Part shown: positions 760 through 55,742 of the stretch, piece by piece
How the letters are laid out: each line of letters starts with the position of its first letter
Position numbering within the stretch: position 1 is the first letter of the stretch
NCBI GenBank assembly: GCA_902795435.1
Contig: CADBLE010000006.1
Location: forward strand, 45,611-109,610
DNA length: 64,000 bases
Reading direction: 5' to 3'
Origin: an uncultured Pseudomonadota bacterium
Lineage (GTDB): Bacteria; Pseudomonadota; Alphaproteobacteria; Rs-D84
Program-made: the position numbers and the translations under genes
Notes under the pieces: model-generated
The model's database searches: none
Told to the model about the DNA's origin: nothing
What the model saw: only the letters and a program-made list of their open reading frames with translations

Positions 760-836
760 GCGCCCATGGCTCAATTGGATAGAGCATCTGACTACGGATC
801 AGAAGGTTGAGGGTTCGAATCCTTCTGGGCGCGCCA
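760..836 (+). tRNA. tRNA-Arg (anticodon ACG), CCA encoded
   Basis: Hand-folded cloverleaf. Acceptor GCGCCCA/TGGGCGC, D-arm GCTC/GAGC, anticodon stem TCTGA/TCAGA with loop CTACGGA (ACG at 794-796), T-arm GAGGG-TTCGAAT-CCTTC, then G + CCA. Confidence 0.93.
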
Positions 837-844
837 GAAATTCA

Positions 845-867
845 AAACCGGTTTTATACCGGTTTTT
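845..867 (+). terminator. Rho-independent terminator after tRNA-Arg
   Basis: AAACCGG / CCGGTTT 7-bp stem, 7-nt loop, T-run. Confidence 0.7.
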
Positions 868-880
868 AATTTGTGCCCAG

Positions 881-1053
881 ACGGACGAGAATACTCAACA
901 GGGTTCGACAACAAGTAGATTTTGCAAACGAAGTGCAGCGAAATCGTTACGGTTGCCACGCAGGGCTTTGCCCGAGTGACCACAAGTAGATTTTGCAAAC
1001 GAAGTGCCGTGAAATCGTTACGGTTGCACCGCAGGCATTTATGCCGAGGTAAT
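881..1053 (+). repeat. tRNA-associated conserved element: leader motif GGACGAGAA...GTTCGA plus two tandem 71-bp units (913-979 and 984-1050 cores)
   Basis: AAGTAGATTTTGCAAACGAAGTGC... starts at 913 and again at 984. The core of unit 1 is 62/67 identical (by eye) to 55765-55831 downstream of tRNA-Lys. Each unit ends in a small hairpin (GGGC-TTT-GCCC in unit 1, GGCAT-TT-ATGCC in unit 2). Confidence 0.8.
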
Positions 1054-1104
1054 CTTCTGGGCGCGCCAGAAATTCAAAACCGGTTTTATACCGGTTTTTT
1101 AATT
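1054..1104 (+). repeat. Direct duplication of the tRNA-Arg 3-prime end plus terminator (copy of 822-871)
   Basis: CTTCTGGGCGCGCCAGAAATTCAAAACCGGTTTTATACCGGTTTTT(T)AATT occurs at 822-871 and 1054-1104, identical apart from one extra T. The second copy contains a second terminator hairpin (1077-1100). Confidence 0.9.
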
Positions 1105-1137
1105 GTTTATCACGGGGAATGAATGGGCGCGACAGAA

Positions 1138-2195: not shown

Positions 2196-3683
2196 ATGAA
2201 GTTTAAATCCTCTATCTTTGCAATTATGACCGTCATACCATGTGTAACATTGTATGTTAATGATGCAAAAGCTACAAATTGTTCTGCTGGTGATTACCAA
2301 TGGGCACTTGCCTGTCACAAATGCTCAAAAGGTTGCTATTGTGAAGGACACGGCGACAATCAATCATGGGGCGCTTTGACGTGTTATCCTGAATCTGGAT
2401 CATATAAACTTGGCGCAAAATCATTCGGTTCTGCTTATGCTCCTCATAAAATTGGCGTATGTCCAAAAGAATTTCCTGAATCAGATGCAGGTACTAACAG
2501 CGAAAGAAATTGTTATAAAGAATACAACGGAAAAAGATTATATAACAGATCGGAAACCTGTAAAGCTGGATGGTATTTTCCGAAAAACTCTAATGGTTGT
2601 GAACCATGTCCAAAAGGGGAAAAAGATTATTGTCCGGGTGGAACCTTTAAACCAAAAACCATCGACGACCAGGGATTATCCCAATGTTCCAGTTCACAAA
2701 AAGCAAATTCAAATCATTCCGGATGCGAAAACAAAGCTATAAATGTAACTTGTAAAGCGGGACAATATTTACAAGCCGGAATGACATATTGCACACCATG
2801 TCGCGACAGATATTATTGTCTTGGCGGATCATTCACTACAGCATCTATTGACCAAGGGTTAAAAAGTTGTACCAACAACAGCAAACCAAATGCAGCAAAG
2901 ACAGCGTGCGTTATCACTTGCAAGGCGGGACAATATTTACCTGGGAAAGCAGCTTCTTGTAGATCTTGCAAAGACAGATATTATTGTCCAGGCGGAACAT
3001 ATTTTGCCAGTCCAAATGTGTTAGCATACAATCGTGACCAGGGTTTATTATCTTGTCCATCTAATAAAGTACCAAACAAGGACAAGACCGCATGTGAATT
3101 TCAAAAAAATGTCCATGATGCAAAACCTGTAGATTCACAACCTGTAGAAAATGGTCCGGAAACATTTAATTGTTCTGTGGGTCAATATTTACCTGCAAAA
3201 GCAAAAAATTGCCAACAATGTAAATCAGGTTATTATTGTACCGGTGGTGATTATGCTTATGCCGATATTGACCAGGGTGCCGCCCAATGTCCTGCTGGAT
3301 TCCATCCAAACGATGTACAAACAGAATGTGAAAAAGATTTACCAAACGAAGTTACATGTGGCGCAGGATTTTATTTGCCATCCAAAACGATGGAATGTAA
3401 AAAATGTACAAATTCTAAACGCTATTGCCCTGGTGGAAAAACTTTCAAGAAAGCGGATTTTGACCAAGGTATCTATAATTGCCCAACAACCAGTGTGGCA
3501 AACGATGATAAAAGCGCTTGCGTTTTGAAATTGTCAAAATCATTCTTGCAATACGGTTCAAATGAAAAAGCATCATTGTCCGAACAATGTTGGGCAAATA
3601 CAGATTCAGCAAAATATAAAATATGCTTGTTTGGAAACCAAGTCGTTTTGCCAGAAGTTGTCATTGACACTGACGCTGAATAA
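2196..3683 (+). CDS. Secreted Cys-rich repeat protein, paralog 1 (ephrin-receptor-like / furin-like six-Cys modules)
   Basis: N-terminal signal peptide (MKFKSSIFAIMTVIPCVTLYVNDAKA). At least 5 modules of the form C-x-[AV]-G-x-Y-[LF]-P-x(3-5)-C-x2-C-x(3-5)-Y-C-x-G-G-x(6-12)-DQG-x3-C-x(8-10)-C. Conserved C-terminal block CVLKLSKSFLQYG...SEQCW...C. Confidence 0.8.
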   Translation: MKFKSSIFAIMTVIPCVTLYVNDAKATNCSAGDYQWALACHKCSKGCYCEGHGDNQSWGALTCYPESGSYKLGAKSFGSAYAPHKIGVCPKEFPESDAGTNSERNCYKEYNGKRLYNRSETCKAGWYFPKNSNGCEPCPKGEKDYCPGGTFKPKTIDDQGLSQCSSSQKANSNHSGCENKAINVTCKAGQYLQAGMTYCTPCRDRYYCLGGSFTTASIDQGLKSCTNNSKPNAAKTACVITCKAGQYLPGKAASCRSCKDRYYCPGGTYFASPNVLAYNRDQGLLSCPSNKVPNKDKTACEFQKNVHDAKPVDSQPVENGPETFNCSVGQYLPAKAKNCQQCKSGYYCTGGDYAYADIDQGAAQCPAGFHPNDVQTECEKDLPNEVTCGAGFYLPSKTMECKKCTNSKRYCPGGKTFKKADFDQGIYNCPTTSVANDDKSACVLKLSKSFLQYGSNEKASLSEQCWANTDSAKYKICLFGNQVVLPEVVIDTDAE

Positions 3684-3704
3684 TATTCGTTCCTGTTTTT
3701 TATC

Positions 3705-3733
3705 TTGTATAAAATTTATATTTTCTGTATAAT
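3705..3733 (+). promoter_or_regulatory. Sigma70-like promoter (TTGTAT, 17 nt, TATAAT)
   Basis: TTGTAT at 3705-3710 and TATAAT at 3728-3733, upstream of the ATG at 3772. Confidence 0.4.
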
Positions 3734-3771
3734 ATGCAATATATATATGGAAGGATTTTTTACTGTAAAAA

Positions 3772-4902
3772 ATGAAGCAAGAAAAATCTGTATTTTTAAC
3801 GGCAACATTGGTGTCTATATTGTCGCTGTATGGTATTGATTCACACGCAGAATCTGTTGTGTGCGGTGTTGGTTATATGTTACCTGCGGGGCATAAATCT
3901 TGCGTTCCATGTGATGATTTCAATCTGAAAAAAGCATCTAAAAACAACCCTGCTACATTATGGTGTCCGGGTGGTAAATTCGTTATTGAACAAAAGCACC
4001 AGGGAATTCAGATTTGCAGTGCGGAAACGTTGGCTGATTCTAAACACAAAAAATGTGAAAAAAAGAAACTTGTTTCATCTCGTTCCGCTAAAAAAACAAA
4101 TTCTTCTGTTAAACCATCTGCAAAAAATTCTGTTGCACGCGCACCCATTGTAAAAACCGATGCGAAAAAGAAAATAAACCCTACAATTAAATCTGCAAAT
4201 TTTGCACAAATAACCTGCAAACCAGGAACTTATTTACCAATGAACGGTAAATCTGCCAATGATTGTAAAAGTTGTTTGGACGGATATTATTGTACCGGTG
4301 GTAAATGGACACCTGACCCAAGTATGAACCAAGGTTTAACAAAATGTGCCGCTGGGTTGGTTCCTGATTCAACAAAAACAAAATGTTATGATCCTAAATC
4401 AAATGAAATAACTTGTAAACCTGGAACTTATTTGCCAATGGACAGTAAATCCTGTGTTTCCTGTTTGGACGGATATTATTGCACCGGTGGTAAATGGACA
4501 CCAAACCCAAGTATAAATCAGGGTTTAATAAAATGCGCTGCGGGTTTGATTTCTAATTCTGATAAAACATTGTGTAAGACACCTGATGCTATGGATTGCA
4601 AGGCTGGCGAATATATACCTGCTAATTCAACAAAATGCGCAAAATGTACGGGTGATAACAAATATTGTCCGGGTGTGGCTGGTAAAAAATCCGATGTTGA
4701 CCAAGGTATTTATTTATGCCCTGACCCAAGCAAAACTAACGCTGAAAAGACCGCGTGTGTTTTGAAATTGGATAAAAACATGATGCAATACGGTCCAGGC
4801 GGACAAACAGTTGCTATATCTGAACAATGTTGGAAAAACATAAGTGCAGAAGAATATATAAAATGTATGTTCGGTGGCAAGGTTAAATTGCCTCAAAAAT
4901 AG
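3772..4902 (+). CDS. Secreted Cys-rich repeat protein, paralog 2
   Basis: Signal peptide, then a K/S-rich linker, then the same six-Cys modules (CKPGTYLPM...CLDGYYCTGGKW...NQGL.KC). Same C-terminal block (CVLKLDKNMMQYGP...SEQCW). Confidence 0.8.
   Translation: MKQEKSVFLTATLVSILSLYGIDSHAESVVCGVGYMLPAGHKSCVPCDDFNLKKASKNNPATLWCPGGKFVIEQKHQGIQICSAETLADSKHKKCEKKKLVSSRSAKKTNSSVKPSAKNSVARAPIVKTDAKKKINPTIKSANFAQITCKPGTYLPMNGKSANDCKSCLDGYYCTGGKWTPDPSMNQGLTKCAAGLVPDSTKTKCYDPKSNEITCKPGTYLPMDSKSCVSCLDGYYCTGGKWTPNPSINQGLIKCAAGLISNSDKTLCKTPDAMDCKAGEYIPANSTKCAKCTGDNKYCPGVAGKKSDVDQGIYLCPDPSKTNAEKTACVLKLDKNMMQYGPGGQTVAISEQCWKNISAEEYIKCMFGGKVKLPQK
4210..4575 (+). repeat. Intragenic tandem duplication of one Cys-rich module (units 4210-4407 and 4408-4575)
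   Basis: ITCKPGTYLPMNGKSANDCKSCLDGYYCTGGKWTPDPSMNQGLTKCAAGL versus ITCKPGTYLPMDSKSCVSCLDGYYCTGGKWTPNPSINQGLIKCAAGL. The nucleotide sequences are also visibly similar. Confidence 0.85.
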
Positions 4903-4916
4903 GTCTTTAAAAGCGG

Positions 4917-6212
4917 ATGAGAGAAAGTATGATTTTTAATAAGATTCTTCTTTTATCATTATCTGTTTATGCCTTTATCGGTATTGAATCCGTGATGGCT
5001 GCTTGTTACAGTTCTGCCGCGGGTGAATATTGTTTAACAAATAAAAGATATACCTGCCCTGCGGGATGTTATTGCGGTTCTGCATCAGAACCAGATGGTG
5101 CATTAGACAAGAAAGGAAACAAACAAAAAGACATTTATCAAGATGAAGTTGCGGCGTGGTGTAAAAACGGTTCATCTTGTCCTTGGTCTGCGGGTGGCGG
5201 ACAATGTGGAACATCTGATAAAGCAAAGGTTTTTAGATGTCCTGCGAATTTCAGTTTTTCTGACAATGGGGCAAAAACAATAGAAAATTGTTATACACAT
5301 CATGATGGCGATTATAAAAAACCAAAACTGTATTATAAAAAAATCACATGTTCTGCAGGTCAATATTTGCCAAAAAATTCAGATTCTTGCACATCATGTA
5401 AAGATGATACGGGCGCATATTGTCCAGGTGTAAAAAATGTAGTACCTTCTACCTCTATTGACCAGGGATTAAACATTTGCCCAGACAAGCAAAAACCTAA
5501 TTCTGAAAGAACCGCTTGTGAAGACACTTCTATTCATTGTGACGCGGGTCAATATTTACCTGCAAATTCCACTTCGTGTGTCGCATGCAAAGATAAATCT
5601 TATGCATGTACAGGTGGTAAATTTTATCAAGAATCTTTTGACCAAGGCATAACCACTTGTGGCGATGGATATGCACAGAATGATGATAAAACACAATGTA
5701 TATATGTGGCAGATACAGATTATAATTGTGAAGTTGGTTATTATTTACCAGCACACGGAACAAAATGTGAAAGATGTGCTTCCAGTAAAAAATATTGTCC
5801 AGGCGGAACGTTTCACTATTATGATTTAGACCAAGGTATATATACATGCCCGTACACCAGTGTGGCGAATTCAGACCGTTCTGCATGTGTTTTGCGTTTA
5901 AGTCAAGATTCTATGAAATATGGTCCAAATGGTGCAAATACCCCATTATCTGAACAATGTTGGAACAAAAAAACAAGAGAAGATTACACAAGATGTATAT
6001 ATTCTGAAAAAGATACGAAACTAATCCAACCTTTATTAAAAAAGCCATTGGCTAATGTTGGTATTCTTGACAATATAATCGACATAAAAAACACTAATCG
6101 TTCTTTGCCAATGGCAACCCCAGAAGACAAAGCATCAAAATTCCGCAATGCCCCTGTTGTCATTGAAAAAAATTCTGTTGTCCAGGCGCTGGTAGATTCT
6201 GTAACGAAATAA
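4917..6212 (+). CDS. Secreted Cys-rich repeat protein, paralog 3
   Basis: Signal peptide (alternative start at 4929, MIFNKILLL...). Has the six-Cys modules (CSAGQYLPKNSDSCTSC..., CDAGQYLPANSTSCVAC...) and the shared block CVLRLSQDSMKYGP...SEQCW, followed by a unique tail of about 70 aa. Confidence 0.8.
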   Translation: MRESMIFNKILLLSLSVYAFIGIESVMAACYSSAAGEYCLTNKRYTCPAGCYCGSASEPDGALDKKGNKQKDIYQDEVAAWCKNGSSCPWSAGGGQCGTSDKAKVFRCPANFSFSDNGAKTIENCYTHHDGDYKKPKLYYKKITCSAGQYLPKNSDSCTSCKDDTGAYCPGVKNVVPSTSIDQGLNICPDKQKPNSERTACEDTSIHCDAGQYLPANSTSCVACKDKSYACTGGKFYQESFDQGITTCGDGYAQNDDKTQCIYVADTDYNCEVGYYLPAHGTKCERCASSKKYCPGGTFHYYDLDQGIYTCPYTSVANSDRSACVLRLSQDSMKYGPNGANTPLSEQCWNKKTREDYTRCIYSEKDTKLIQPLLKKPLANVGILDNIIDIKNTNRSLPMATPEDKASKFRNAPVVIEKNSVVQALVDSVTK

Positions 6213-6269: not shown

Positions 6270-7253
6270 GTGTTTGATATGTTTTTTATTCCGAAATTTC
6301 TGAAACCTAAAAAAAATCTTGTAAATTTATTACGCGTGTTGGCTGGTGTAAATAAAAAACCAAATATACAAAAATTGATTAAATCTGTTGATGTTTATAA
6401 CGAACCTTTGCAAAAGGTATTCTTGCTGGCGTCGGTGGTATCTAAATTCGACAAATCTTTGTTATCAAAGCAACTGGCCGGGGTTTTAAGCCATGAAAAA
6501 TTTGGGAATGCTATGAATATGGCTGCTTTCCAAAAAATCTGTAAATTATATAACAACAATGGCATTGTACCACTTGCTCAAAAGGGATTGGTGCAAAAAT
6601 TATTATATCCACAGAGCACCCGCCCTATGAATGATGCAGATTTCGCGGTTCCTAAAAATGTTTACCGTAATGCGATAAATTTGGCCACCACAGACGGTTT
6701 TCATATCAACCATGATATGTTATTCAGTGCTGATTTACAATTACGTGACCAGGGCTGTGTTGATGTCCATTACGCTTTATTCAAAGGGGCAAATCCACGC
6801 ATGGACGATGAAATATTTAATCGCGCATCACATTTAAACACAATGGGGTGTGATGTTTTGATTCCGTCCCCAGAAGACATCATTGTTATAATTATGTGCG
6901 AATTTTATGGGAACTTTTTGTTTGAAGCGGGTTCCGCAGATACAGATACAAATAAAATATTTGATTCGCACCCACAATGGGTATTGGATACATATAAAAT
7001 AATTCACGATTATCCTGAATTAAATTGGGGCAAAATTATGAAGACCGCTAAAATGTCTGGATATGATTATCAAATCAGAATTTTAACCAAATTATTAAAC
7101 AAAATTATTCCAAATATTATTCCACACCACGCACAAAAAGTTATGGAATACATGTGTCCAGACCGCGTTGTAAAACATTATCTGAAACGCGATAAAAAGT
7201 TGGTATATATGCATCAGCAAAGTTATAAATACTATCAAATGGAAAACCTGTAA
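6270..7253 (+). CDS. Uncharacterised nucleotidyltransferase-family protein (PF14907-like)
   Basis: GTG start (alternative ATG at 6279). KGLVQKLLYPQSTRPMNDADFAVP resembles the lKG..lY...R...D.D.lV signature of the family that co-occurs with HprK-like and PqqD genes. The stop overlaps the next start (TAATG). Confidence 0.55.
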   Translation: MFDMFFIPKFLKPKKNLVNLLRVLAGVNKKPNIQKLIKSVDVYNEPLQKVFLLASVVSKFDKSLLSKQLAGVLSHEKFGNAMNMAAFQKICKLYNNNGIVPLAQKGLVQKLLYPQSTRPMNDADFAVPKNVYRNAINLATTDGFHINHDMLFSADLQLRDQGCVDVHYALFKGANPRMDDEIFNRASHLNTMGCDVLIPSPEDIIVIIMCEFYGNFLFEAGSADTDTNKIFDSHPQWVLDTYKIIHDYPELNWGKIMKTAKMSGYDYQIRILTKLLNKIIPNIIPHHAQKVMEYMCPDRVVKHYLKRDKKLVYMHQQSYKYYQMENL

Positions 7254-8290
7254 TGCCTACCAATTACATAAAAAATCTTGGTCAAAAAAATTTTGATGAA
7301 ATTTGTAACAAATTTCAAAATGTAATTATGCAAAACAAACCTGTTTGGCGTGGCACAGTATATATCGGCGAAAAACCTTTGTATATTGAATGTAATGTAA
7401 AATGGTTGGCTGAAAAAATTCCTTTGTATTTCGTAAAGGCAATAGAAAACACAAAAATCAACGGATGTAAAGAATTATACATATTGAACCATGGCGTTCA
7501 TAAATTCGTTCCATCTCCCGATTGTTGCACCACAGATTTAGCATTTGTTGGTTCAAATATTTATAAACACCCAGATATAATTATTCATAATAATTGTGTG
7601 TTTGTCAGAAAAAATCCTGTATTTTATCTGTCTATTACCGAAGAATACGGAACTAATTTTTACCATCTGGGCGAAAACCATTTATTGATGCGATTATTAA
7701 ATTACATATTTGATGATGATTCTAATATTGTGTTGCATGGTGCGGCGGTTGGAAATGAAGATTACGGTGTTTTAATTACGGGCTTAAGTGGTTCTGGAAA
7801 ATCTACATTGTCCGCATATTGTTTGGCAAATGGTATGAAATTTGTTGGTGATGACAGAATTGCTCTGCACCGTGAAAACAATACTGTTTTTGCCAACCCG
7901 ATATACACAACATTATCTTTAAACGAAACAATAGACGGTGTAAAAACAACTTTTTCATCGCGTCCAAACGGTTGCAATAAAGATGTTTATGTCGTTGATA
8001 AATCCCAAATTTCAAACCATATTCCAATTAAAGCAATTATTGAACCAATTAAATCTGGGAAAGACAAACCAATTATAGAAAGATGTAATCTATCCCCTAT
8101 TTTAACACGCATTTGTATGGATTATTCGTATTTCAGTTTATTATCCAGAAACACAAATCCTATGAATGATTACAAGAAAATTTCAAACTTGCTTACCGGG
8201 GTAGAATCATTTAACATAGAATTATCAACAGACATAAACGAAAATGCAAAAGCAATTTGTAATTTAATTTCAACCAAAGGGGTTATTTAA
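7253..8290 (+). CDS. HPr kinase/phosphorylase C-terminal-like serine kinase
   Basis: LHGAAVGNEDYGVLITGLSGSGKSTLSAYCLANGMKFVGDDRIAL matches the P-loop plus DD motif pattern of HprK-related kinases. Confidence 0.7.
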   Translation: MPTNYIKNLGQKNFDEICNKFQNVIMQNKPVWRGTVYIGEKPLYIECNVKWLAEKIPLYFVKAIENTKINGCKELYILNHGVHKFVPSPDCCTTDLAFVGSNIYKHPDIIIHNNCVFVRKNPVFYLSITEEYGTNFYHLGENHLLMRLLNYIFDDDSNIVLHGAAVGNEDYGVLITGLSGSGKSTLSAYCLANGMKFVGDDRIALHRENNTVFANPIYTTLSLNETIDGVKTTFSSRPNGCNKDVYVVDKSQISNHIPIKAIIEPIKSGKDKPIIERCNLSPILTRICMDYSYFSLLSRNTNPMNDYKKISNLLTGVESFNIELSTDINENAKAICNLISTKGVI

Positions 8291-8712
8291 TGTATAAAAA
8301 GAATCCAGATTTTTTCTCTGATATAACTGGCTCTCAGGTTATTTTTATAGACATGGAACAAGGTGTTTTTTATTTGCTACCTCTGTTTGCGAGTTTGGTG
8401 TTGAAATTTTTAATCAAAGGTTTTGATTTATCACAAATCAAAGAAACTTTTTCTAAAATCCCTGAAATACCAAGCGATTATGAATCACGTATAGATTCTG
8501 TATTGGAAAATTTGTTGAAATTCAATTTAATCGTTGAATCTGACACACCAGATACAATAGAAGATGTTGTATTAAACGATTTAACATATCAAGATTTACA
8601 AGAAGAAGATTTTGCTTTTGTTATTACACCATCAACAGATGTCCAAAAATTATTATTGGACGACCCTATTCATGATGTATCTTTGGACGGTTGGACACCA
8701 ATTGAAAAATGA
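8290..8712 (+). CDS. PqqD-family (RiPP recognition element-like) protein
   Basis: 140 aa. The pattern GVFYLLPLFASLVLKFLIKGFDLSQIKETF...VLENLLKFNLIV fits PqqD. Its start overlaps the upstream stop (TAATG). Confidence 0.55.
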   Translation: MYKKNPDFFSDITGSQVIFIDMEQGVFYLLPLFASLVLKFLIKGFDLSQIKETFSKIPEIPSDYESRIDSVLENLLKFNLIVESDTPDTIEDVVLNDLTYQDLQEEDFAFVITPSTDVQKLLLDDPIHDVSLDGWTPIEK

Positions 8713-9350
8713 TTTCTGTTATAATACCTGTGTTTAATGGCGAAAAATATCTTGATGAATGTCTATCAAGTGTCAATCACACGGGTATTGAAATAATCGT
8801 TGTAAATGATGCCAGCACAGACAATTCAATCACTATCGCAAAAAAATACACAGATAAAATTATAACTATATCTAAAAGCGGGCCTGTTATCGCACGAAAT
8901 ACAGGACTGAAATCTGCAAGTGGCGAATATGTTATGTTTATGGATGCAGATGATGTTTTGGTTGACAATGCTTTTGATATTTTAACACAACAAATAAAAG
9001 ATTTTGATGCGGTTATTGGATTACGACAAGATTTCATTTCCCCAGATTGTGTTGATAATTACACACCTGTATCAGAACAAAAAAAATCTTCACATGGTGT
9101 TATTTCTGGGTGTGCGTTGCTCAAAAAAACTGTGTTTGATACTGTTGGTGATTTTGATAGTGATTTAATGTGTGGCGATGGATATGATTGGTTATTGCGT
9201 GCCGAAAAAAACGGTGTAAAAATAAATAAAATAGATTCTGTTATATGTCGTCGCAGATTACATAATTCTAATATGGGACGCACATTGAAAGCCCAAGAAT
9301 GTGCCGACTATGTAAAAATAATAAGAAAACATTTTACAAAGAAGAACTGA
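8709..9350 (+). CDS. Family 2 glycosyltransferase
   Basis: ISVIIPVFNGEKYLDECLSSV...VVNDASTDNS...MDADD (DxD). ATGA overlap with the upstream gene. Confidence 0.85.
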   Translation: MISVIIPVFNGEKYLDECLSSVNHTGIEIIVVNDASTDNSITIAKKYTDKIITISKSGPVIARNTGLKSASGEYVMFMDADDVLVDNAFDILTQQIKDFDAVIGLRQDFISPDCVDNYTPVSEQKKSSHGVISGCALLKKTVFDTVGDFDSDLMCGDGYDWLLRAEKNGVKINKIDSVICRRRLHNSNMGRTLKAQECADYVKIIRKHFTKKN

Positions 9351-10327
9351 TGACAAAAATCATTCATGTTTGTGTTGCCGCTGATAATAATTACAAACTG
9401 CCATTGACGGCGGTGCTGAATTCTTTTGTAAAAAATGTTAAAAACAAAACTGTTTTACATATTTTATATACGGGCTTTTCTGAAAAATATAAAAACAAAT
9501 TAAATCGTTTTTGTTGTGGGACAAATATCTCTCTTGATTTCAGAGATATGTCGAAATACGATTTTGATTTTCACGGTCTGGATATGCAACATTGGACACG
9601 TGCTATATTTTACAGAATTATGATTCCAGAAATGTTTTCTGATTTAGACCGTATGATTTATCTGGACGGCGATACTTTGGTTCTGGACGATTTATACGAA
9701 TTATACAACACACCTATGGATAACGATTTTATGTTGGGCATGGTTGTGGACAGGTTTTCCTATAAAACGCGTATTGGCGAATTGAAAACATCTAATTATT
9801 TCAACAGCGGTATGATTTTATTTGATATAAAAAAATGTCTTGAATTTAATTTTTCTGAAAAATGTGTTCAATGGATACACGATAACCCGGAAACCGCTAA
9901 ATTCCCAGACCAAGACGCAATAAACATTATTGCTGACAATAAAATTTTGAGAATAAACAACATATACAACAAACAATTTGCAACAAACGATTCAATAGAT
10001 TGGTCCAAACAATATGTTGTCGCACATTTCTTGTCTGCTATAAAACCATGGCATTATAATGCGCCTTCGTTTTACAGCAAAAAATACAGAAAATATATTC
10101 CAAACAAATTCAGTGCTTTCAAAATTTATGTATCTCAAAAAATACACGAATTAAAATATTTCTGTTTTCATGAAAAATATGTAATGAAATTAGTAAACAT
10201 GAAAATCGTTGAACAAGTTAAATTTTATGTGTTTAATATGTGTATTAAAACAAAAACTTTGGATACTAAAAAACCAAATTTAATAGATGTTCTGCAAAAC
10301 AACAAAGGTGCCAGAAAATGTATATAA
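9350..10327 (+). CDS. Family 8 glycosyltransferase (LgtC/RfaJ-like)
   Basis: MTKIIHVCVAADNNYKLPL..., YLDGDTLVLDD (DxD), FNSGMILFD. The ATG at 9350 overlaps the TGA of the GT2 gene. The ORF track start at 9299 is probably upstream read-through. Confidence 0.8.
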   Translation: MTKIIHVCVAADNNYKLPLTAVLNSFVKNVKNKTVLHILYTGFSEKYKNKLNRFCCGTNISLDFRDMSKYDFDFHGLDMQHWTRAIFYRIMIPEMFSDLDRMIYLDGDTLVLDDLYELYNTPMDNDFMLGMVVDRFSYKTRIGELKTSNYFNSGMILFDIKKCLEFNFSEKCVQWIHDNPETAKFPDQDAINIIADNKILRINNIYNKQFATNDSIDWSKQYVVAHFLSAIKPWHYNAPSFYSKKYRKYIPNKFSAFKIYVSQKIHELKYFCFHEKYVMKLVNMKIVEQVKFYVFNMCIKTKTLDTKKPNLIDVLQNNKGARKCI

Positions 10328-11031
10328 ATTCAGAAAAAATTACACAAATTGTAATCAGAACACTGGATAAACCTGTGTCATACGATTTATTTGAAAATTT
10401 TATACGCAAATCACCTTTTATTCGCCAGATTGCATTTATTGGCAAAGGAATCTTTGATTCACCTGATTTTACAAAAATACTTGATTTATGTCGTCTAAAA
10501 AGTATTGCTTTAATTTTCGGTGAAATGGCACGCAATGTTCCTATTGAAATCGTTGATGCAATGGTTCGTGCAGGTAATATAATCGCAGTAAATATACATG
10601 ACGGCGACCCAAATATAAACAATATGATTGAATTAAAGAACAAATATCAAATGCCTGTACCAGAGGTAAATGCAATTATCCAAACAGAACCACGCACACC
10701 GCAAGATTCATTGTCTGAATCATCATACGCTTTCTATAATCTCGCAGACGATAAAAACAATATACCATGTTGGAATTTATTATATGAACCAATGATTGAA
10801 TTTAATGGTTCCCTGTTGGGTTGCTGGGCAAATCCAGATAAAAAACACCCTATCAATGCATTTGAATTGGGTATGGAATCAGCATTAAACAAATCCCCTT
10901 TTATAAACATGATAAAGATGCTTAAATCTGGAAAAATAAATACAAAATGTCCATGTGCCAGATGTCCTGTATTTGCCAGTTTGGTTTGGGACAATTCAAC
11001 CATAGATATTTATACCAGAACACAAAAATAA
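10318..11031 (+). CDS. Radical-SAM-fold / SPASM-like protein lacking the CxxxCxxC cluster motif
   Basis: IAFIGKGIFDSPDFTKILDLC...IAVNIHDGD resembles the rSAM barrel. The C-terminus CWNLLYEPMIEFNGSLLGCW...KCPCARCP looks SPASM/twitch-like. The N-terminal region (IVIRTLDKPVSYDLF) has no Cys triad. Confidence 0.45.
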   Translation: MYINSEKITQIVIRTLDKPVSYDLFENFIRKSPFIRQIAFIGKGIFDSPDFTKILDLCRLKSIALIFGEMARNVPIEIVDAMVRAGNIIAVNIHDGDPNINNMIELKNKYQMPVPEVNAIIQTEPRTPQDSLSESSYAFYNLADDKNNIPCWNLLYEPMIEFNGSLLGCWANPDKKHPINAFELGMESALNKSPFINMIKMLKSGKINTKCPCARCPVFASLVWDNSTIDIYTRTQK

Positions 11032-11970: not shown

Positions 11971-12046
11971 TCGGGCATAGTTCAGTCGGTAGAACAACGG
12001 ACTGTTAATCCGTATGTCACTGGTTCGAGTCCAGTTGCCCGAGCCA
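11971..12046 (+). tRNA. tRNA-Asn (anticodon GTT), CCA encoded
   Basis: Acceptor TCGGGCA/TGCCCGA. Anticodon stem-loop CGGA-CTGTTAA-TCCG. T-arm ACTGG-TTCGAGT-CCAGT, then G + CCA. Confidence 0.92.
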
Positions 12047-20445: not shown

Positions 20446-23232
20446 TTAATTCAATAATTTTTGAATTTCAGTTGTAACTTCAGATGCTCTGGTGACTTTT
20501 TTCCATTTTACGTTTTCTATTTTATCAAATAACTTTTCTTGTGCGTTCAAAGCAATAATGTCGGTATCTCTGAGATTATCGGATTTTGTTTCAACAAATA
20601 AAGTTAATTTTATATTATTACCATTTGTAACCGCGTAAACAAAATCAGGCGAAGTTGTCCCGCCAACATATGTCGGGATTTTTATACACTTTCTTGGTAA
20701 TTTACCGAAAACATTGACTTTATTGTCCGGAGTTAATTTTAACACTTCTCGTTCTATTGAAGTATCGTACACCTTCTTGTCATAAAGATAATTAGGTTCC
20801 ACCATCAAATCTGTAGCTTCGTGTGTTCCAACTAAACCTTGTGTTATTTCATCTACAAAATTGCCATCTTTAATAAGAGTTGTATTGGCTGAAAAATCTA
20901 AAGATTGGTAATTAAACTTCTGCATAAATGTAGACAAGAATTTTTCATGAAACCTTTTTAATACATTATCTAAACTGCCCTCGTTGATTCTGTCCGGGAC
21001 CATACCACAACCATACAATTCACACATTGCTTTATGCCATGTGTTTACGGGTATCAATGTTCGTTCGGATAATCTACGCATAAACTTACCATAACTCAAT
21101 CTGATTAATGGTGTACTAATGTGTTTTGTTGTAGCTTTTGAAACAATTTTTCCGTCTTGTGACTCTAAACTGTAAGTTGTAATTTGACCTTCTGAAGGGG
21201 TAAAAGATTCAAGTAAAGCATGCTTTAAAATGCTATTTAAATCTTCATCGGATATTTTGTCGTACACAACCATGTATCTTTTTGTAACTTCTTGCCAGAC
21301 ATCTTTCAATTTTTCCCAGTTTTCTTTTCTTAGTTTTACGACAGGCTTTTTCTCTGAGTTAACAGTCACAACACCTTTTCTTAGCGAATAATTATCTGGT
21401 AATAGTTTTATCAAACCATCAACGTCTACTATATCATCAGATGCATTTATGACACCAGCAAACAACAAACCACCTTTAGCTCTATCAACACTGTCTGCAT
21501 ATCCATTTGCTACCAAAGCTTCCAAAATATTAATATTAATCTTCATATTTTGTACTATGCCACCATCACTATTAATTTCATTAATAAGTTTATCTGCAAA
21601 ATCTTTTTCGGACCAATCTATCAAGAAATCTAATCTAAATTCTTGTGTTGATATACGTTTGTGATTTTCGTCCACAGGCAAACGCAAACCACGTCCTACT
21701 TCTTGAATTTTACTGCTTTCGCTACCACTGGTTCTTAATTTAGCAATAGTGAATACATTTGTATTATCCCACCCTTCACGTAAAGTCCATTTAGAGAACA
21801 AGAAGCGTCGTAAAACCCAATTCCCTTTTTCGTCTTTAAATGAAGTTAATTTATCTCTATTCCTTAAAATATCGTTTACTTCTGCTTGTATCCCGTCATC
21901 TTTTGCTGTTGCTCTGTCTTCTGCAAAATAACCACCATGTGTTTCCGCTATATTTGCTAAACTTTGTTCCAGGAAATCTTTATATTCTTGGTTCTTTTCT
22001 AAACCTATTAATTCCCTTAACTTGGCTCTTAAAAGACGTTCGAATGTTTGTTTTAGCCAACCATCTTCATTTCTGTATGACGCTATATTATCAATAAAGA
22101 ATAAGGTTAAGGTCTTTATTTTTGCAGGATTCATCCCACAATTTTCCCTAAACCAATTTTCACGTTCCTTTTTAAAATGGGATTCTATGGCTTGTTTAAT
22201 CAATAATTCTTGATAACTTGATGAAAATAGTGACGGAATTAAAATCATACCATCTGATAATTCCAAACCAGTAGATAACATTTTATTACCATCAAAGGTG
22301 ATTCCGCCTTCAAATTCGCTCGGCAAAGCATCACCTATGGCCATCTCATATCTATTACCAGATTCGGTTAATGTTAAACTTCTATTTGTTACTGATGTTA
22401 CCCTATATTTGCGTGCCGCTTGAGCTTGATTTATTTCTGGAAAAATGACGTTTATCCCTTTTACCAACCCATTATTAAAAGCATTAACAGCATTCAAATC
22501 ATATACAAGGTCTTCAAAATCATCTTTTTCGACCTTATTCCTTCCTGATCCAACTGTAATTTTTGGAAAAGTTGCACCAAATCTTACAATTAATTGCGGT
22601 TCTAATCCTTGAATTGCCTGCCAAGCCTTTGTTGTTTTAGCAAATCTGTGTGGTTCATCAATAATAACGACAGGTTTTACAGCCTTAATTGAATCAATCG
22701 GGCAAGAATAAGAATTAATCAAAGTTTGATCGTAATCATCACGTGTCATTGATTTGCTGATTAACATATCATCGTTAAGCAACAAGCATTTTATGGTCTT
22801 AGAATCATTTCTGGTTCCTTCTAAAAAATCCATCAAAGCAGCAGGGATTGTTTTTCGTCCCTTCTTTGTATTAAAATCACCAGCATTAATCATATCCAAA
22901 TCGATATGAATATTTTCATATAATCCAGAAAAATGTTGTTTTGTATCTTTGTGTGTGATAAAAGCTTTTGTGCCTTCTTTAATAGCCAAAGATGGAACAA
23001 AAATTATAAATTTGTTTAACCCGTATTGTTTAAACATCTCGTACATCATACGTGTATAAACATATGTTTTACCAGTAGCAGTTTCCATTTTTACATCAAT
23101 ATTCTGTTGAATATTAATGTTATGATTTGCATATGGATTATCGTTGTCTTGAACATTATCACGACAACCATTCATAGCATCCATAATGGCTTTTATCGCG
23201 TCTGATTGATGGGGCAGTTGTTCCAGATACAT
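20446..23232 (-). CDS. res: Type III restriction enzyme, Res subunit
   Basis: METATGKTYVY (motif I) and VIIDEPHRF (DEPH box). C-terminal PD-ExK-like motif TSPDFVYAV...LFVETKSD. Lies immediately downstream of mod (2-nt gap). Confidence 0.85.
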   Translation of the reverse strand: MYLEQLPHQSDAIKAIMDAMNGCRDNVQDNDNPYANHNINIQQNIDVKMETATGKTYVYTRMMYEMFKQYGLNKFIIFVPSLAIKEGTKAFITHKDTKQHFSGLYENIHIDLDMINAGDFNTKKGRKTIPAALMDFLEGTRNDSKTIKCLLLNDDMLISKSMTRDDYDQTLINSYSCPIDSIKAVKPVVIIDEPHRFAKTTKAWQAIQGLEPQLIVRFGATFPKITVGSGRNKVEKDDFEDLVYDLNAVNAFNNGLVKGINVIFPEINQAQAARKYRVTSVTNRSLTLTESGNRYEMAIGDALPSEFEGGITFDGNKMLSTGLELSDGMILIPSLFSSSYQELLIKQAIESHFKKERENWFRENCGMNPAKIKTLTLFFIDNIASYRNEDGWLKQTFERLLRAKLRELIGLEKNQEYKDFLEQSLANIAETHGGYFAEDRATAKDDGIQAEVNDILRNRDKLTSFKDEKGNWVLRRFLFSKWTLREGWDNTNVFTIAKLRTSGSESSKIQEVGRGLRLPVDENHKRISTQEFRLDFLIDWSEKDFADKLINEINSDGGIVQNMKININILEALVANGYADSVDRAKGGLLFAGVINASDDIVDVDGLIKLLPDNYSLRKGVVTVNSEKKPVVKLRKENWEKLKDVWQEVTKRYMVVYDKISDEDLNSILKHALLESFTPSEGQITTYSLESQDGKIVSKATTKHISTPLIRLSYGKFMRRLSERTLIPVNTWHKAMCELYGCGMVPDRINEGSLDNVLKRFHEKFLSTFMQKFNYQSLDFSANTTLIKDGNFVDEITQGLVGTHEATDLMVEPNYLYDKKVYDTSIEREVLKLTPDNKVNVFGKLPRKCIKIPTYVGGTTSPDFVYAVTNGNNIKLTLFVETKSDNLRDTDIIALNAQEKLFDKIENVKWKKVTRASEVTTEIQKLLN

Positions 23233-23234
23233 GA

Positions 23235-25070
23235 TTAAAATCTCTCTATAATTTCAACGTTTCCTTCTAAAACCGACTTCATGTTGTTTTTTAATTCCGT
23301 TAAAGTTTTAAAATCAAACGAATGGTTGTAAACAATTATTGTTTGTACACTTAATTCGTTACGCCCAATCAAATTTAACAATTCACGAGTATTATCGGTT
23401 GTCCATCCCACAGATATCAAATATAAACGGTGTGAATCTTTTGGTAAATAGGCAGTGTAATCACCAAATTTGATTTCTTGTATTGGCGTGGTCAAAGTAT
23501 ACCCATCATCAACCATCCATGTGGTTAATATTGTTTCTATCCCAGAAGCCATTAATTTGGTTCCTAAATCTTTACCAGAGAAAGGTTTAATCATATCATC
23601 CGCTAATAAATTAGGTTTAGTTGGATCAAACGTATCGATTTTATCTAAAACCAAATTATCAGATATTTTTGCCAATTTATAATGTTTAAATCCAGATTTA
23701 TCACCGATTTTATCAGCAGCCAGTTTTATACGATCACGGGATATTTCATCAATCGTTTTATATCCAGCTTTTTCTGCTTCACTGCCACTTGCAACAGGTT
23801 CATCCAATTGCACCATTATATACTTACGATTACCTTTATCTTCAGAATTCAATTGCATAACCGCATGTGCAGTTGTTGACGAACCTGCGAAAAAATCTAA
23901 AATTAGAGAATTTTTATCTGATGCTAAATTTAATATGACTTCCAACAAAGAAACAGGTTTTGGAAAATCAAACACATCATCAAGGGACAAATCTCTTAAA
24001 TTATCTGTTCCCAAATTATTCACATATTTAGAACTCATCAAATCATTTGTTGTCAATATCAGATTAGGATCCTTATCAACTAATATATTAGTTCCAACTT
24101 GAAATTCTTTATTTATATAGTTTCTAACTCTTAACGTCGAAGCCGTTTCTACTACTATACCTAATTCTATGGCCTTCTGCATTCTGTCCTTTGTCCAAAG
24201 CCAACGTCTTCTATTGCCTTTAGAATCAACAGGCTTATAAATTTTTCCATTAAACTCTATATCATAATCCCCACCTGCTGAATATCCTTGAGTTGAACTA
24301 GCTAAAATTGGGCTTGTATCACCCTCCAAATATGTACCTTTGTCATCATGCTTTAAATTTGTCAAATTTCTTTGTACAACATGATGAAAATCATATTGCT
24401 TGTGTTTCGTGTAAACAACAATATAATCGTTAGTTTTAGATATATATTTTTCCTGTGCGGGTCTTTGTGCTGAACTTAATCTAGGTACTAATGCGATAAA
24501 GTTATCTTCTCCGAATATTTCATCACATATTAGTTTTAAATTGGTTACTTCATTATCATCTATTGATATAAATATAGCCCCATCATCTGCTAACATCCTT
24601 TTTGCAAGAACAAGACGTGGCAACATAAAGGTCAGCCATGCTGAATGCGAACATTTGCCGTTAAGTGCACGCAACCGTGCAACATCTGAATCTGCCATAC
24701 CTAATTTTTCTTTTAATTGGGCATCTGTAAAATTAAATGTATCATTATAAACAAAACCATCCGACCCCGTATTGTATGGAGGGTCTATATAAATACATTT
24801 TATCTGTCTTTCATAAGCATTAACCAAATGTTTCAATGCATCTAAATTATCCCCTGTAATGAATATGTTTTGACTATCTTTATTTTCAGCCTTGTTATTC
24901 CATTCTTTATCAGGGACCAAAACAGTTTCCGTTGGTAGTGTAGATACAAATTTGGCGTAATCTTTACCAACAAAACGCAACTGATACCCATCACGAATTT
25001 CATCGCGATCAGGATTTGTAATTGTCGCATTTTCTATTTCTTCACGAATTGCTTTAAGTCCTTCAAACAT
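23235..25070 (-). CDS. mod: Type III DNA methyltransferase, Mod subunit (beta-class N6A/N4C)
   Basis: IYIDPPYNTG (motif IV) is N-terminal and LDFFAGSSTTAHAV (motif I) is C-terminal, with a variable region between them. This is the beta-class order typical of Type III Mod. Confidence 0.85.
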   Translation of the reverse strand: MFEGLKAIREEIENATITNPDRDEIRDGYQLRFVGKDYAKFVSTLPTETVLVPDKEWNNKAENKDSQNIFITGDNLDALKHLVNAYERQIKCIYIDPPYNTGSDGFVYNDTFNFTDAQLKEKLGMADSDVARLRALNGKCSHSAWLTFMLPRLVLAKRMLADDGAIFISIDDNEVTNLKLICDEIFGEDNFIALVPRLSSAQRPAQEKYISKTNDYIVVYTKHKQYDFHHVVQRNLTNLKHDDKGTYLEGDTSPILASSTQGYSAGGDYDIEFNGKIYKPVDSKGNRRRWLWTKDRMQKAIELGIVVETASTLRVRNYINKEFQVGTNILVDKDPNLILTTNDLMSSKYVNNLGTDNLRDLSLDDVFDFPKPVSLLEVILNLASDKNSLILDFFAGSSTTAHAVMQLNSEDKGNRKYIMVQLDEPVASGSEAEKAGYKTIDEISRDRIKLAADKIGDKSGFKHYKLAKISDNLVLDKIDTFDPTKPNLLADDMIKPFSGKDLGTKLMASGIETILTTWMVDDGYTLTTPIQEIKFGDYTAYLPKDSHRLYLISVGWTTDNTRELLNLIGRNELSVQTIIVYNHSFDFKTLTELKNNMKSVLEGNVEIIERF

Positions 25071-55623: not shown

Positions 55624-55699
55624 GGAGGCATAGCTCAGTTGGTAGAGCAAATGACTTTTAATCATTGGGTCCAGGGTTCGAGTCCCTGTGCCTCCACCA
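55624..55699 (+). tRNA. tRNA-Lys (anticodon TTT), CCA encoded
   Basis: Acceptor GGAGGCA/TGCCTCC, D-arm GCTC/GAGC, anticodon stem-loop AATGA-CTTTTAA-TCATT, T-arm CAGGG-TTCGAGT-CCCTG, then A + CCA. Confidence 0.93.
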
Positions 55700-55710
55700 A
55701 AAAGATTTAA

Positions 55711-55732
55711 CGACCAGATTGGTCGTTTTTTT
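55711..55732 (+). terminator. Rho-independent terminator after tRNA-Lys
   Basis: CGACCA / TGGTCG stem, 3-nt loop, T7 run. Confidence 0.7.
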
Positions 55733-55742
55733 ATTGCACATG

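Follow-up and report, generated by a model that had tools for sequence, protein, structure and literature searches.

The tRNA-Arg(ACG) gene near the start of the window, as we call the whole 64,000-nt stretch of DNA analyzed here, is followed by a repeat of its own 3' end and by structured sequence in tandem, which raises the question of what kind of entity occupies this position. The tRNA gene itself (760–836, forward strand) is intact and encodes its CCA (ARAGORN; 68.2 bits with the Rfam tRNA model). It is followed on the same strand by an intrinsic terminator, terminator 1 (844–871), which consists of a hairpin (844–866) and a T-run. Terminator 1 and the preceding 822–843 form the first copy of a 53-nt direct repeat (822–874, forward strand), and the second copy (1054–1106) contains terminator 2 (1076–1103, forward strand). 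Both terminators were identified by direct-repeat analysis and a terminator scan. The two copies are 96% identical without gaps and differ only in one extra T in the T-run, as the earlier note had stated for the tRNA end and its terminator. No plausible ORF was found in the ~230 nt of the Arg element.

The interior of the element can be assigned almost completely to pieces of a tRNA and to two inserted units, all on the forward strand. Repeat analysis of the window revealed an inverted repeat (806–830 and 875–899, 76% identity) that underlies a 5' arm at 873–899, which matches the tRNA-Arg 3' end in reverse complement, though in degenerate form. Its first nine nucleotides, GTGCCCAGA (873–881), pair with UCUGGGCGC, and its antisense T-loop is changed to ACGAGAA (885–891). 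Next come the T-stem 5' strand and the first five T-loop nucleotides (CAGGG-TTCGA, 899–908), which are the left flank of the units and their target. Unit 1 (909–979, 71 nt, type A) was recognized by the covariance model R1 (103.5 bits) and by covariation, and its minimum free energy fold gives the helices P2 (909–912 with 952–955), P1 (918–925 with 938–945, closing the 12-nt loop AAACGAAGUGCA) and P3 (957–978, CA..GGGCTTTGCCC..TG), with a terminal A at 979. Unit 2 (980–1051, 72 nt, type A) has the same architecture with a P3 of AC..GGCATTTATGCC..GT. The remainder of the tRNA-Arg copy, located by repeat analysis and alignment, follows at 1052–1068 and comprises T-loop nucleotides 59–60, the T-stem 3' strand with one C missing, the acceptor 3' strand, G73 and CCA. 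The T arm of the tRNA-Arg copy is thus split between A58 and N59. The sequence GAGGTAATCTTC, previously taken for a collapsed T arm, has to be divided: unit 2 has GAGGTA as its 3' end, ATC(C)TTC comprises T-loop nucleotides 59–60 and the T-stem 3' strand, and the other half of the arm, CAGGGTTCGA, lies upstream at 899–908. The tandem character of the two units was borne out by a repeat with a period of 71 (907–969 and 978–1040, 89% identity), and it is not a matter of chance: AAGTAGATTTTGCAAACGAAGTGC occurs at 913 and 984, and with one mismatch at 55765, while shuffled sequence gave 0 matches. An older array layer extends over 1099–1137 (forward strand), recognized by direct repeat and by homology to ..TTATTGTTTATCAAGGGGAATGAATGGGTGCGCCA in loci L009, L011 and L012. 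What remains of the right end of an AT-rich palindromic insert (TTGTTTATCACGG) is found there, together with a degenerate tRNA-Arg end, the third at this locus (GGAATGAATGGGCGCGACAGAA, 1114–1137).

The one-mismatch occurrence belongs to a sister element behind a second tRNA gene of the window, also on the forward strand. The intact tRNA-Lys(UUU) gene (55624–55699; ARAGORN, Rfam) is followed by a terminator found by the terminator scan (55709–55735) and by a 5' arm (55736–55760) in which GCACA-U-GGGAC pairs with GUCCC-UGUGC. This arm carries the same altered antisense T-loop, ACGAGAA, and then CCC-GTTCGA with the target TTCGA at 55756–55760. A single type A unit of 71 nt (55761–55831; R1, 92.6 bits) adjoins it and is 90% identical to Arg unit 1; P3 is identical in the two, and P2 has undergone compensatory changes (AAA(U)/UUUU). 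A copy of the tRNA-Lys 3' end from T-loop nucleotide 59 to CCA (GTCCCTGTGCCTCCACCA, 55832–55849) comes next, and then a diverged second copy of the terminator (55863–55885), after which GCACATG is repeated. The earlier note had passed over this sister element, the inverted copy at 873–899 and the tRNA-Arg end at 1114–1137.

Further copies were indeed found: the unit family comprises ~35 loci in rumen and gut Alphaproteobacteria ("Ca. Enterousia" relatives) of many species. It occurs behind at least 11 different tRNA genes. The conserved entity, which the earlier note had not recognized, is a gene-less unit of 71–93 nt that sits exactly between T-loop nucleotides 58 and 59. Among 31 distinct units, the left flank is TCGA in 29 and ends in GA in all (AACGA in L008); by position, G6 and A7 are invariant and T4 and C5 are conserved to at least 90%. 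The right flank consists of N59N60, the 3' strands of T-stem and acceptor, and CCA, all of the local tRNA, a rule obeyed by the units at Arg-ACG, Arg-TCT, Lys, Leu, Pro (three anticodons) and Ser (two anticodons) genes. The target is simply split (TTCGA|unit|ATCC) without target-site duplication, and the unit ends, CAACAAG.. and ..GAGNNA, are not inverted repeats. The orientation is that of the T arm and the tRNA throughout, and a terminator follows. The surrounding scaffold, made up of the inverted copy of the tRNA end, whose T-loop is altered in a consistent manner, a small hairpin with a GAA loop, and the direct copy, recurs with other tRNAs and is kept across contexts: the antisense T-loop reads A(C/T)G(A/C)GAA, the stems of the GAA-loop hairpin change in compensatory fashion, and the type of 5' arm travels together with the type of unit. 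In all loci, the 5' arm starts 3–10 nt past a strong terminator. Every scaffold seen holds a unit or another insert, so that neither an empty docking scaffold nor an occupied/empty polymorphic pair within one species was encountered in this sample, which had been chosen by the presence of the unit. The locus behind tRNA-Tyr (L028) has the TTCGA left flank, a disrupted P3 and no subsequent tRNA-end copy.

The three predicted helices P2, P1 and P3 are supported by covariation across the family. P1 (GAUUUUGC/GCGAAAUC) and P2 (CAAC/GUUG) are backed by both covariation and RNAalifold; in P2, pair 8–54 is CG in 17 and AU in 14 units, and pair 10–52 is AU in 17 and CG in 12. In P3, six of nine pairs are changed on both sides and 97% are paired. 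Slid controls gave 30–55% pairing. The two nucleotides before the terminal A covary with the two nucleotides 5' of the P3 hairpin (CC/GG, CG/CG, AC/GT, CA/TG). The differing hairpins that had been pointed out in the two window units, GGGC-TTT-GCCC and GGCAT-TT-ATGCC, are both present, and the compensatory change seen between them is genuine. Such change exceeds the controls in these helices and fits a structured RNA as well as folded single-stranded DNA. The second stem proposed at that time, GCAA-ACGA...TCGT-TTGC, is possible on paper, yet none of its pairs covaries and the GGGTTGCG variants disrupt it. Our own initial fold of the 5' half (GCAA/TTGC, GUG/YAC and GCG/CGU), which comes near that stem, was dropped, as variants in L053 and in the L003 Arg locus indicate P1 and P2, in agreement with RNAalifold. 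The model R1 was built on this initial GCAA/TTGC-type fold and still detects the units because the 5'-half region is ungapped. P1 and P3 (NNCGC-A-G..C-GAG-NN) are unrelated in sequence. Whole elements gave weak folding z-scores of −1.9 and −0.3, and units of −1.5 to −0.2, and duplexes between cognate 5' and 3' arms were only slightly more stable than non-cognate ones (−16.0 vs −13.3 kcal/mol, sd 4.0). A closing helix between the 5' arm and the 3' end can be formed with G·U pairs, as GUGCCCAGA/UCUGGGCGC in the window and GUGUCC/GGGCGC in L016. In Rfam 15, tRNA alone scored, the other best matches having E values of at least 1, far below threshold, so that the scan assigned the element to no known family.

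Comparison among units and loci bears on how the arrays arose. Arg unit 1 is more similar to the Lys unit (0.90 identity) than to unit 2 (0.85) or to the unit of the orthologous L003 Arg locus (0.75), and unit 2 is 79% identical to the Lys unit; likewise, the Arg and Pro units of L043 share 0.88 identity, and the Pro units of L043 and L040 share 0.75. Judged by these identities, unit likeness tracks the genome, not the tRNA or the locus. Since unit 1 is nearer to the Lys unit than to its neighbor, the pair in the window is better accounted for by two insertions stacked on each other than by a tandem duplication in place. Stacks at one point also combine different unit types, with A+A in the window, B+A in L011 and L031, and A+C in L027 and L035, and an AT-rich palindromic insert sits two nucleotides beyond the unit insertion point. 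One docking position carries different units in different genomes: among orthologous TK-tRNA-Arg loci, the window has two type A units, L048 and L049 have one type B unit, L053 has one variant type A unit, and L051 and L052 retain a remnant only. In L008, a type-B-like unit lies flush and reversed within a type A unit (..GTAACGA|CTACGAG...GAGTGA|TTTCGC..) and disrupts P1 of its host. The site is not a tRNA, and such an arrangement can hardly arise in any way other than insertion into DNA.

On these grounds, it is quite possible, if somewhat short of probable, that the unit is a non-autonomous mobile cassette specific for the T-loop site. Such a cassette would insert at the DNA level, in a single orientation, 3' of (T/A)(T/A)CGA and without target duplication, through an enzyme acting in trans and, as we propose, a single-stranded intermediate. 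The array rests on a copy of the tRNA's own 3' end, with two units stacked between A58 and N59. TTCGA survives every insertion, and a second unit can therefore land at the same point; re-use of TTCGA would yield the apparent tandem pair, in which the unit adjoining TTCGA would be the younger. Units would survive only in spare T-arm copies because the loss of an essential tRNA would follow from a hit in its own T-loop. That the units move, pass through a single-stranded intermediate, arrived in this order and dock in tRNA-end copies for this reason is what we infer from the arrangement. Compensatory changes in the helices are as expected if the ends are recognized as folded single strands. The frequent loss of the tRNA-like 3' end from units that are themselves intact, and the decayed and truncated copies at the distal ends of arrays, likewise argue for the cassette. 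Several features speak against it: neither a transposase, integrase or reverse transcriptase gene in or beside the loci nor an empty scaffold or occupied/empty pair came to light in this unit-selected sample. The end hairpins P1 and P3 are unlike each other, and P3 stops one nucleotide short of the boundary; characterized IS200/IS605 ends differ in both hairpin likeness and hairpin-boundary spacing. The G·U pairs in the acceptor-like helix of the window Arg element and of L016 have the appearance of selection acting on RNA. Gene conversion, instead of transposition, could account for exchange between loci. In addition, the scaffold is conserved across contexts and the 5' arm type travels with the unit, and a larger module may therefore be what moves.

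In its behavior, the unit is closest to the miniature derivatives of the single-strand IS200/IS605 transposons. Like those of the PATE type, it is gene-less, shorter than 100 nt, provided with hairpins near both ends and free of terminal inverted repeats. Target and orientation also agree, as both lie in one orientation 3' of a fixed pentanucleotide, lack target duplication and leave the site reusable. The covariation of right-end nucleotides with those 5' of the right hairpin is a further likeness, resembling the guide/cleavage-site pairing of IS608. The differences are that no TnpA, TnpB or full-length parent was found for the present unit, nor any Y1 (HUH)-encoding relative with the same ends, that its left and right hairpins are dissimilar, the right one ending 1 nt from the boundary, and that its target is a tRNA T-loop, seen in spare tRNA-end copies with a conserved scaffold. 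A search with a pattern placed in the unit's left end returned no longer element, and none of its ~35 true matches contained a gene. No transposase, integrase or reverse transcriptase lies in or beside any of ~40 loci, no transposase occurs in the annotated parts of the genomic scaffold that includes the window, and viral contigs, phage genomes and plasmids yielded no copy of the element.

Our literature search found group I introns in the T-loop of tmRNA genes and nothing that resembles the present element. In those introns too, a structured insert occupies a defined T-loop sub-site of a tRNA-like gene, the whole intron-form gene being at least 545 nt long (PMC11915505). The units, in contrast, measure 71–93 nt, lack a group I core, a −1 U and a terminal G, are preceded by A and end in A, and gave no Intron_gpI match; moreover, the interrupted tRNA copy is a fragment and not a functional gene that needs splicing.

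The main competing explanation, which we consider possible but less likely, is that the loci are a putative family of tRNA-like non-coding RNA genes, an idea already contained in the earlier note. A transcript would run from the 5' arm, through read-through of the first terminator or from a weak promoter overlapping it, as far as the second one. By pairing with the 3' strands of the copied acceptor and T-stem, the 5' arm would form a CCA-bearing, tRNA-like minihelix that RNase P and 3' trimming could process; UUCGA would be kept, and a domain of P2–P1, the conserved 12-nt loop and P3 would emerge at the insertion-tolerant 58/59 position. Units A, B and C would then be alternative functional domains, and concerted evolution with the neighboring tRNA gene would keep the ends matched. 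What the loci would share with tmRNA and YrlA-type Y RNAs is an acceptor-like helix with CCA, should it form, besides a retained T-loop motif and an additional structured domain; here, however, no model matched, the acceptor and T-stem are copied from the neighboring tRNA, the extra domain leaves the T-loop at 58/59, and the tRNA-like end is often lost. The covariation in three helices with conserved loops and the closing helix with its G·U pairs argue for this explanation, as do the constant orientation with the tRNA and the subsequent terminator. So do the preservation of the fold by compensatory change in orthologous loci (e.g., the window Lys element vs L039 Lys), the compensatory stems of the hairpin preceding the T-stem, and the parallel gain of G·G by the antisense T-loop in the Arg and Lys contexts, which could mimic the D-loop guanines docking on the T-loop. 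Yet a search for a promoter of the element's own gave no promoter-like site, the Arg element lying between two intrinsic terminators and the 5' arms beginning immediately past a strong terminator. The acceptor/CCA end is missing or pushed apart by further inserts in about half of the units, the unit itself staying intact (lost, e.g., in L006, L009, L011, L012, L014, L015 and L020), and one subfamily (L009, L019, L033 and others) lacks the 5' strand complementary to the acceptor. The small advantage of cognate duplexes and the weak z-scores add to this, and selfish DNA accounts better for the arrays, the decayed copies and the reversed unit nested in another. For the conserved loop we can suggest no function, and mRNA matches to the conserved single-stranded stretch were no better than chance. 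The loci also do not resemble a type III toxin–antitoxin system, as the genes downstream lie on the other strand and are not the same from locus to locus.

The earlier note had also suggested an att-flanked, CIME-like remnant of integrase-mediated integration at the tRNA 3' end, in which the tRNA-end copies would be attL and attR, a tyrosine integrase would act in trans and the unit would be an attP arm region. The brackets are real: as in CIMEs, direct repeats of the tRNA 3' end without a recombination gene enclose the element (822–874 and 1054–1106; 55832–55849, matching the tRNA-Lys end), and they start in the T-loop, where P4-family integrases cross over. Arrays with decayed and truncated copies at their distal ends fit as well, and in L019 and L051 the distal copy is a tRNA-Arg allele unlike that of the functional gene (GGGCGCGCCA vs GGGTGCGCCA), which suggests imported DNA. 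The window even contains a P4-like integrase gene (31844–33190), the candidate enzyme; it is the only integrase found and lies ~30 kb off in a separate island, for which no second, delimiting tRNA-Asn end was detected within the window. Nevertheless, we think this origin improbable. A single integrase specificity cannot account for a conserved interior found behind at least 11 different tRNAs, and no cognate integrase was found, none adjoining any locus. There is no overlap region because the unit ends have only A or GA in common with the target, and since the T-stem 5' strand and TTCGA stand directly upstream of the unit, the unit breaks up the tRNA copy instead of adjoining it at an att core. 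Boundaries are uniform and compact in ~35 loci, unlike those of deletion remnants; the hairpins evolve by compensatory change of a single-strand type, which double-stranded protein-binding sites do not need; and the family includes the non-tRNA insertion of L008. A plain local duplication of the tRNA 3' region, decaying and without function or mobility, would account for the almost perfect 53-nt repeat, and tandem-inversion-type rearrangements at hairpins could yield a direct–inverted–direct layout, but the occurrence of the same unit behind many tRNAs at >30 loci in many species, the three covarying helices and the identical insertion point contradict it so strongly that we give it very little credence. 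Least credible of all, to the point of being negligible, is a miniature tmRNA-like RNA, suggested by ..GGUUCGAC..UAG..GCAAACGA.. and the CCA end. The likeness to the tmRNA 5' motif GGAUUCGAC and to the E. coli resume region UAGUC-GCAAACGAC is superficial, although SmpB is encoded on the same scaffold as the window. The identity was rejected, as neither ARAGORN nor the Rfam tmRNA models gave a match; neither the stop nor the length of the frame that starts at GCA is conserved, since P3 differs in size by numbers not divisible by three; the acceptor stems belong to Arg, Lys, Pro and other tRNAs instead of being of the alanine type; and GCAAAC falls within P1 and its loop.

Beside the mobile cassette, we see some chance, well below even, that the module as a whole represents an entity of a new kind. 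It would either be a class of tRNA-mimicking RNAs, with a shell copied from the neighboring tRNA and exchangeable structured domains at 58/59, or a mobile element that uses a folded mimic of a tRNA gene to recognize or safely occupy T-loops. In the latter form, the mimic would be built from inverted and direct copies of the tRNA 3' end, with TTCGA unpaired opposite the altered loop; to our knowledge, such targeting has not been described for any transposon or integrative element.

The family is undescribed and apparently mobile. If it moves, its insertion specificity would be aimed at a universal T-loop pentanucleotide, for which we know of no precedent among small bacterial elements, and its survival in spare tRNA-end copies would show coexistence with essential tRNA genes in a reduced genome. 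If it is expressed, it would represent an uncharted family of tRNA-shaped RNAs, each genome of this widespread and uncultured lineage from gut and rumen having several of them. GC skew, inspected for the direction of replication, was uninformative, being dominated by gene orientation. The covariance model combined with the junction rule (TTCGA | unit | N59) is a ready tool for a genome-wide census of these loci, which are currently unannotated and can mislead tRNA, att-site and genomic-island callers that rely on duplicated tRNA 3' ends.

The window, AT-rich bacterial DNA, contains three tRNA genes according to ARAGORN and Rfam, tRNA-Arg-ACG (760–836), tRNA-Asn (11971–12046) and tRNA-Lys-UUU (55624–55699). 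The duplication of the tRNA-Arg end and terminator described in the earlier note was confirmed as a 53-nt direct repeat (822–874 and 1054–1106; 96% identical, with one extra T), which contains the final 15 nt of tRNA-Arg together with its terminator, and the tandem 71-nt unit was likewise recovered (907–969 and 978–1040; 89% identical). The 24-mer opening each unit had no match in 100 shuffles, and the same search located a third copy at 55765, right behind tRNA-Lys, where the element ends with a copy of the tRNA-Lys 3' end, not that of tRNA-Arg, and a terminator comes next. tRNA-Asn has no comparable element.

A common plan was drawn from the three window copies side by side and then from about 35 more loci. 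A locus starts with an intact tRNA and its intrinsic terminator, which are followed by a 5' arm, a degenerate reverse complement of the acceptor 3' strand and T arm of the local tRNA with the antisense T-loop altered to A(C/T)G(A/C)GAA. In many loci a small GAA-loop hairpin comes next. The T-stem 5' strand and TTCGA then lead into one or two units, after which the copy of the same tRNA resumes at T-loop nucleotides 59–60 and runs through the 3' strands of the T-stem and acceptor to N73 and CCA. A second terminator closes the locus. On this plan, the T arm of the tRNA-end copy, previously suggested to be collapsed, is instead split exactly at A58/N59. The Arg locus comprises the 5' arm (873–899), CAGGGTTCGA (T-stem 5' strand and TTCGA; 899–908), unit 1 (909–979), unit 2 (980–1051) and the tRNA remainder (1052–1068), and the Lys locus comprises the 5' arm (55736–55754), GTTCGA (55755–55760), one unit (55761–55831) and the tRNA remainder (55832–55849). 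At 1099–1137, downstream of the Arg array, the right-end remnant (1099–1115) of an AT-rich palindromic insert, intact in other loci, precedes a third, degenerate tRNA-Arg end. This separate mini-element, ~80 nt long and with terminal inverted repeats (..ACAATTAAGAAAAT...ATTTATTTATTGT..), was found in the fetched loci L010, L018, L034, L036, L041, L046 and L003 (about 6850–6950); it enters the tRNA-end copies that the units also use, either after N60, two nucleotides beyond the unit insertion point, or within the acceptor strand.

The terminal hairpin reported for each unit is real and belongs to a longer helix, P3, N1N2-CGC-A-G[variable hairpin]C-GAG-N2'N1', in which the two outer pairs covary (CC/GG, CG/CG, AC/GT and CA/TG) and the tip is fully compensatory. 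Across 16 units, both partners had changed in six of the nine P3 pairs, and 97% of cells were paired, versus 29–45% in a control with the partner slid. The second stem proposed earlier, GCAA...TTGC, showed no covariation and was broken in a large subfamily, and variants in L053 (GAUUUUGG/CCAAAAUC) and at the L003 Arg locus (GAUUUCAC/GUGAAAUC) pointed to a different fold. Here P1 (GAUUUUGC/GCGAAAUC) closes a conserved 12-nt loop (AAACGNAGUGNA), and P2 (CAAC/GUUG) is flush with the left unit boundary. P1 and P2 together were 97.6% paired in 31 units, with CG versus AU alternation at two positions of P2 (17 vs 14 and 17 vs 12), and RNAalifold recovered P2, P1 and P3 unprompted. Since single-sequence folding energies were unremarkable (z −1.9 to −0.2), the evidence for structure is comparative, and it holds for RNA and folded single-stranded DNA alike.

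Further copies, which the earlier note had suggested counting, were found: a covariance model of the unit gave 44 matches with E below 0.01 in the fetched DNA, including a second L003 element, located behind tRNA-Arg, as well as weak matches to a divergent unit, type B (the form in the window being type A). One sequence pattern was scanned against viral contigs (no loci), species-representative genomes (19 loci, 18 real and one a chance coding-region match) and metagenome contigs (17 of 26 loci real). Hosts of the real genome matches were almost all uncultured rumen or gut Alphaproteobacteria, several named 'Candidatus Enterousia', and the window matches a metagenome scaffold of this kind. As located with ARAGORN, units lie ~100–300 nt downstream of, and co-oriented with, many tRNA genes (Arg-ACG, Arg-TCT, Pro-CGG, Pro-TGG, Pro-GGG, Leu-TAG, Ser-GGA, Ser-TGA, Lys-UUU and Tyr-GTA), and three more tRNA-like ends without assignment to a tRNA adjoin units. 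Rfam 15 has no family for the element, and the phage and plasmid collections held no similar DNA. The unit family is real, non-random and previously unannotated. Types B and C are two further unit types at the type A insertion point (L011 1964–2045, L031 1895–1976, L043 6601–6682, L048 3835–3916 and L008 4291–4362; L012, L027 and L035). Type B starts with C(A/T)A(T/C)GAGTAAG.., has P3 and part of P2 in common with type A, and has an analogous P1 with a compensatory change (AGCG/CGCU vs AGCA/UGCU); type C starts with CACGATAGTTG... In L007 and L013 (about 2100–2530 in L013), the element follows a protein-gene terminator with no preceding tRNA gene, and its tRNA-like end, ATCCGTGCGCGACCA, opposes a convergent tRNA-Gln across a common terminator.

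Unit similarity tracks the genome, not the tRNA or locus. Arg unit 1 shares 90% identity with the Lys unit, which lies 55 kb away, against 85% with the adjacent unit 2 and 75% with its counterpart at the orthologous L003 Arg locus, and the Arg and Pro units of L043 are mutual nearest relatives (0.88), the two Pro-GGG loci reaching only 0.75. The contents of orthologous TK-tRNA-Arg loci, an unbiased sample, differ: the window has two type A units, its closest relative (TK 81% identical) one type B unit at the same Arg position in place of type A, a more distant genome a variant type A unit, and another locus only a remnant behind the terminator, whose tRNA-Arg allele differs from that of the adjoining gene. 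Unit types are stacked at one point (B+A in L011 and L031; A+C in L027 and L035), and distal array members are decayed or truncated. In L008, a type-B-like unit lies reversed inside a type A unit, with flush ends, after AACGA, and breaks P1 of its host. Taken together, the genome-wise similarity, differing orthologous contents, stacking, nesting and distal decay indicate that units have probably been copied between sites at the DNA level, inserting after (T/A)(T/A)CGA without duplication. The tandem repeat in the window would then reflect two units inserting in succession at a single TTCGA. A GC-rich, apparently highly structured region of ~250 nt (4200–4700, minus strand), with long-range complementary runs such as CCCTCCCC...GGGGAGGG and no Rfam family match, lies upstream of the L008 element; the stretch GGGGAACTAGTATCAG within it recurs at the element flanks. 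The L008 docking site may be another RNA gene.

In behaviour, the units are closest to miniature IS200/IS605 derivatives, sharing a short, fixed target that can be reused, a single orientation, the absence of duplication, a hairpin at each end and right-end nucleotides that covary with those 5' of the right hairpin. However, no transposase-bearing parent was found and the two end hairpins are dissimilar; because these are two defining tests, the units are not to be classed in IS200/IS605. Structured elements at sub-sites of the T-loop have a precedent in the T-loop group I introns found in tmRNA genes (PMC11915505); those introns are unrelated and ten times the size.

The most likely reading, which we hold tentatively, is that the units are non-autonomous, structure-dependent T-loop-site cassettes stacked in a spare tRNA 3'-end copy. 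Several observations sit poorly with a simple transposon: no enzyme gene was present in or near any locus examined, and no longer parent element was found. The scaffold (the 5' arm, GAA-loop hairpin and direct tRNA-end copy around the unit) is conserved across tRNA contexts and the type of 5' arm goes with that of the unit, and therefore the transferable entity may be a larger module of scaffold and unit. The conserved scaffold also keeps in play the main rival, a family of tRNA-like non-coding RNAs whose domains are exchangeable. So do the antisense T-loop, in which the same two positions are altered for Arg and for Lys (TC to GA or GC), leaving TTCGA unpaired opposite, the G.U pairs tolerated in the acceptor-like helix, the shared orientation of element and tRNA, and the terminator behind the element. 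We consider such a gene rather unlikely, given that no promoter-like site was found, two terminators box in the element, the CCA end is lost or separated in about half of the units, one subfamily lacks the acceptor-complementary strand, and cognate arms pair scarcely better than non-cognate ones. The CIME-like remnant suggested earlier retains its account of the flanking repeats and imported alleles, but leaves unexplained one interior behind many tRNAs, the absent overlap sequence and the split T arm, and is improbable. A tmRNA-like reading of the element was tested and rejected.

Both element-bearing tRNA loci are flanked by several large secreted cysteine-rich-repeat proteins (2196–6212 and 52293–55373; C..G.Y.P....C..C....YC.GG........DQG...CP) with no Pfam matches. 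Downstream of tRNA-Asn lies a defence-type genomic island (12100–35800) that encodes type III restriction-modification Res (20446–23232) and methylase (23235–25070), a Zorya-like ZorA/OmpA pair (about 25.6–27.5 kb), an SNF2 helicase (28144–30897), a P4-like tyrosine integrase (31844–33190; Phage_integrase plus Arm-DNA-bind_3), and ankyrin and HNH proteins; the tRNA-Asn 3' end is not duplicated anywhere in the window. In a public assembly with the window's genes, the window halves fall on scaffold_747 and scaffold_3108 (window position about 44000; compare L055 and L056), and thus the window assembly is the more contiguous one of the same or a near-identical organism. The gene cluster at 6270–11031 resembles one for peptide modification or glycosylation: it encodes an NTP_transf_5 protein and an HPr-kinase-like protein, together with a small ORF of PqqD-like size and two or three glycosyltransferases.
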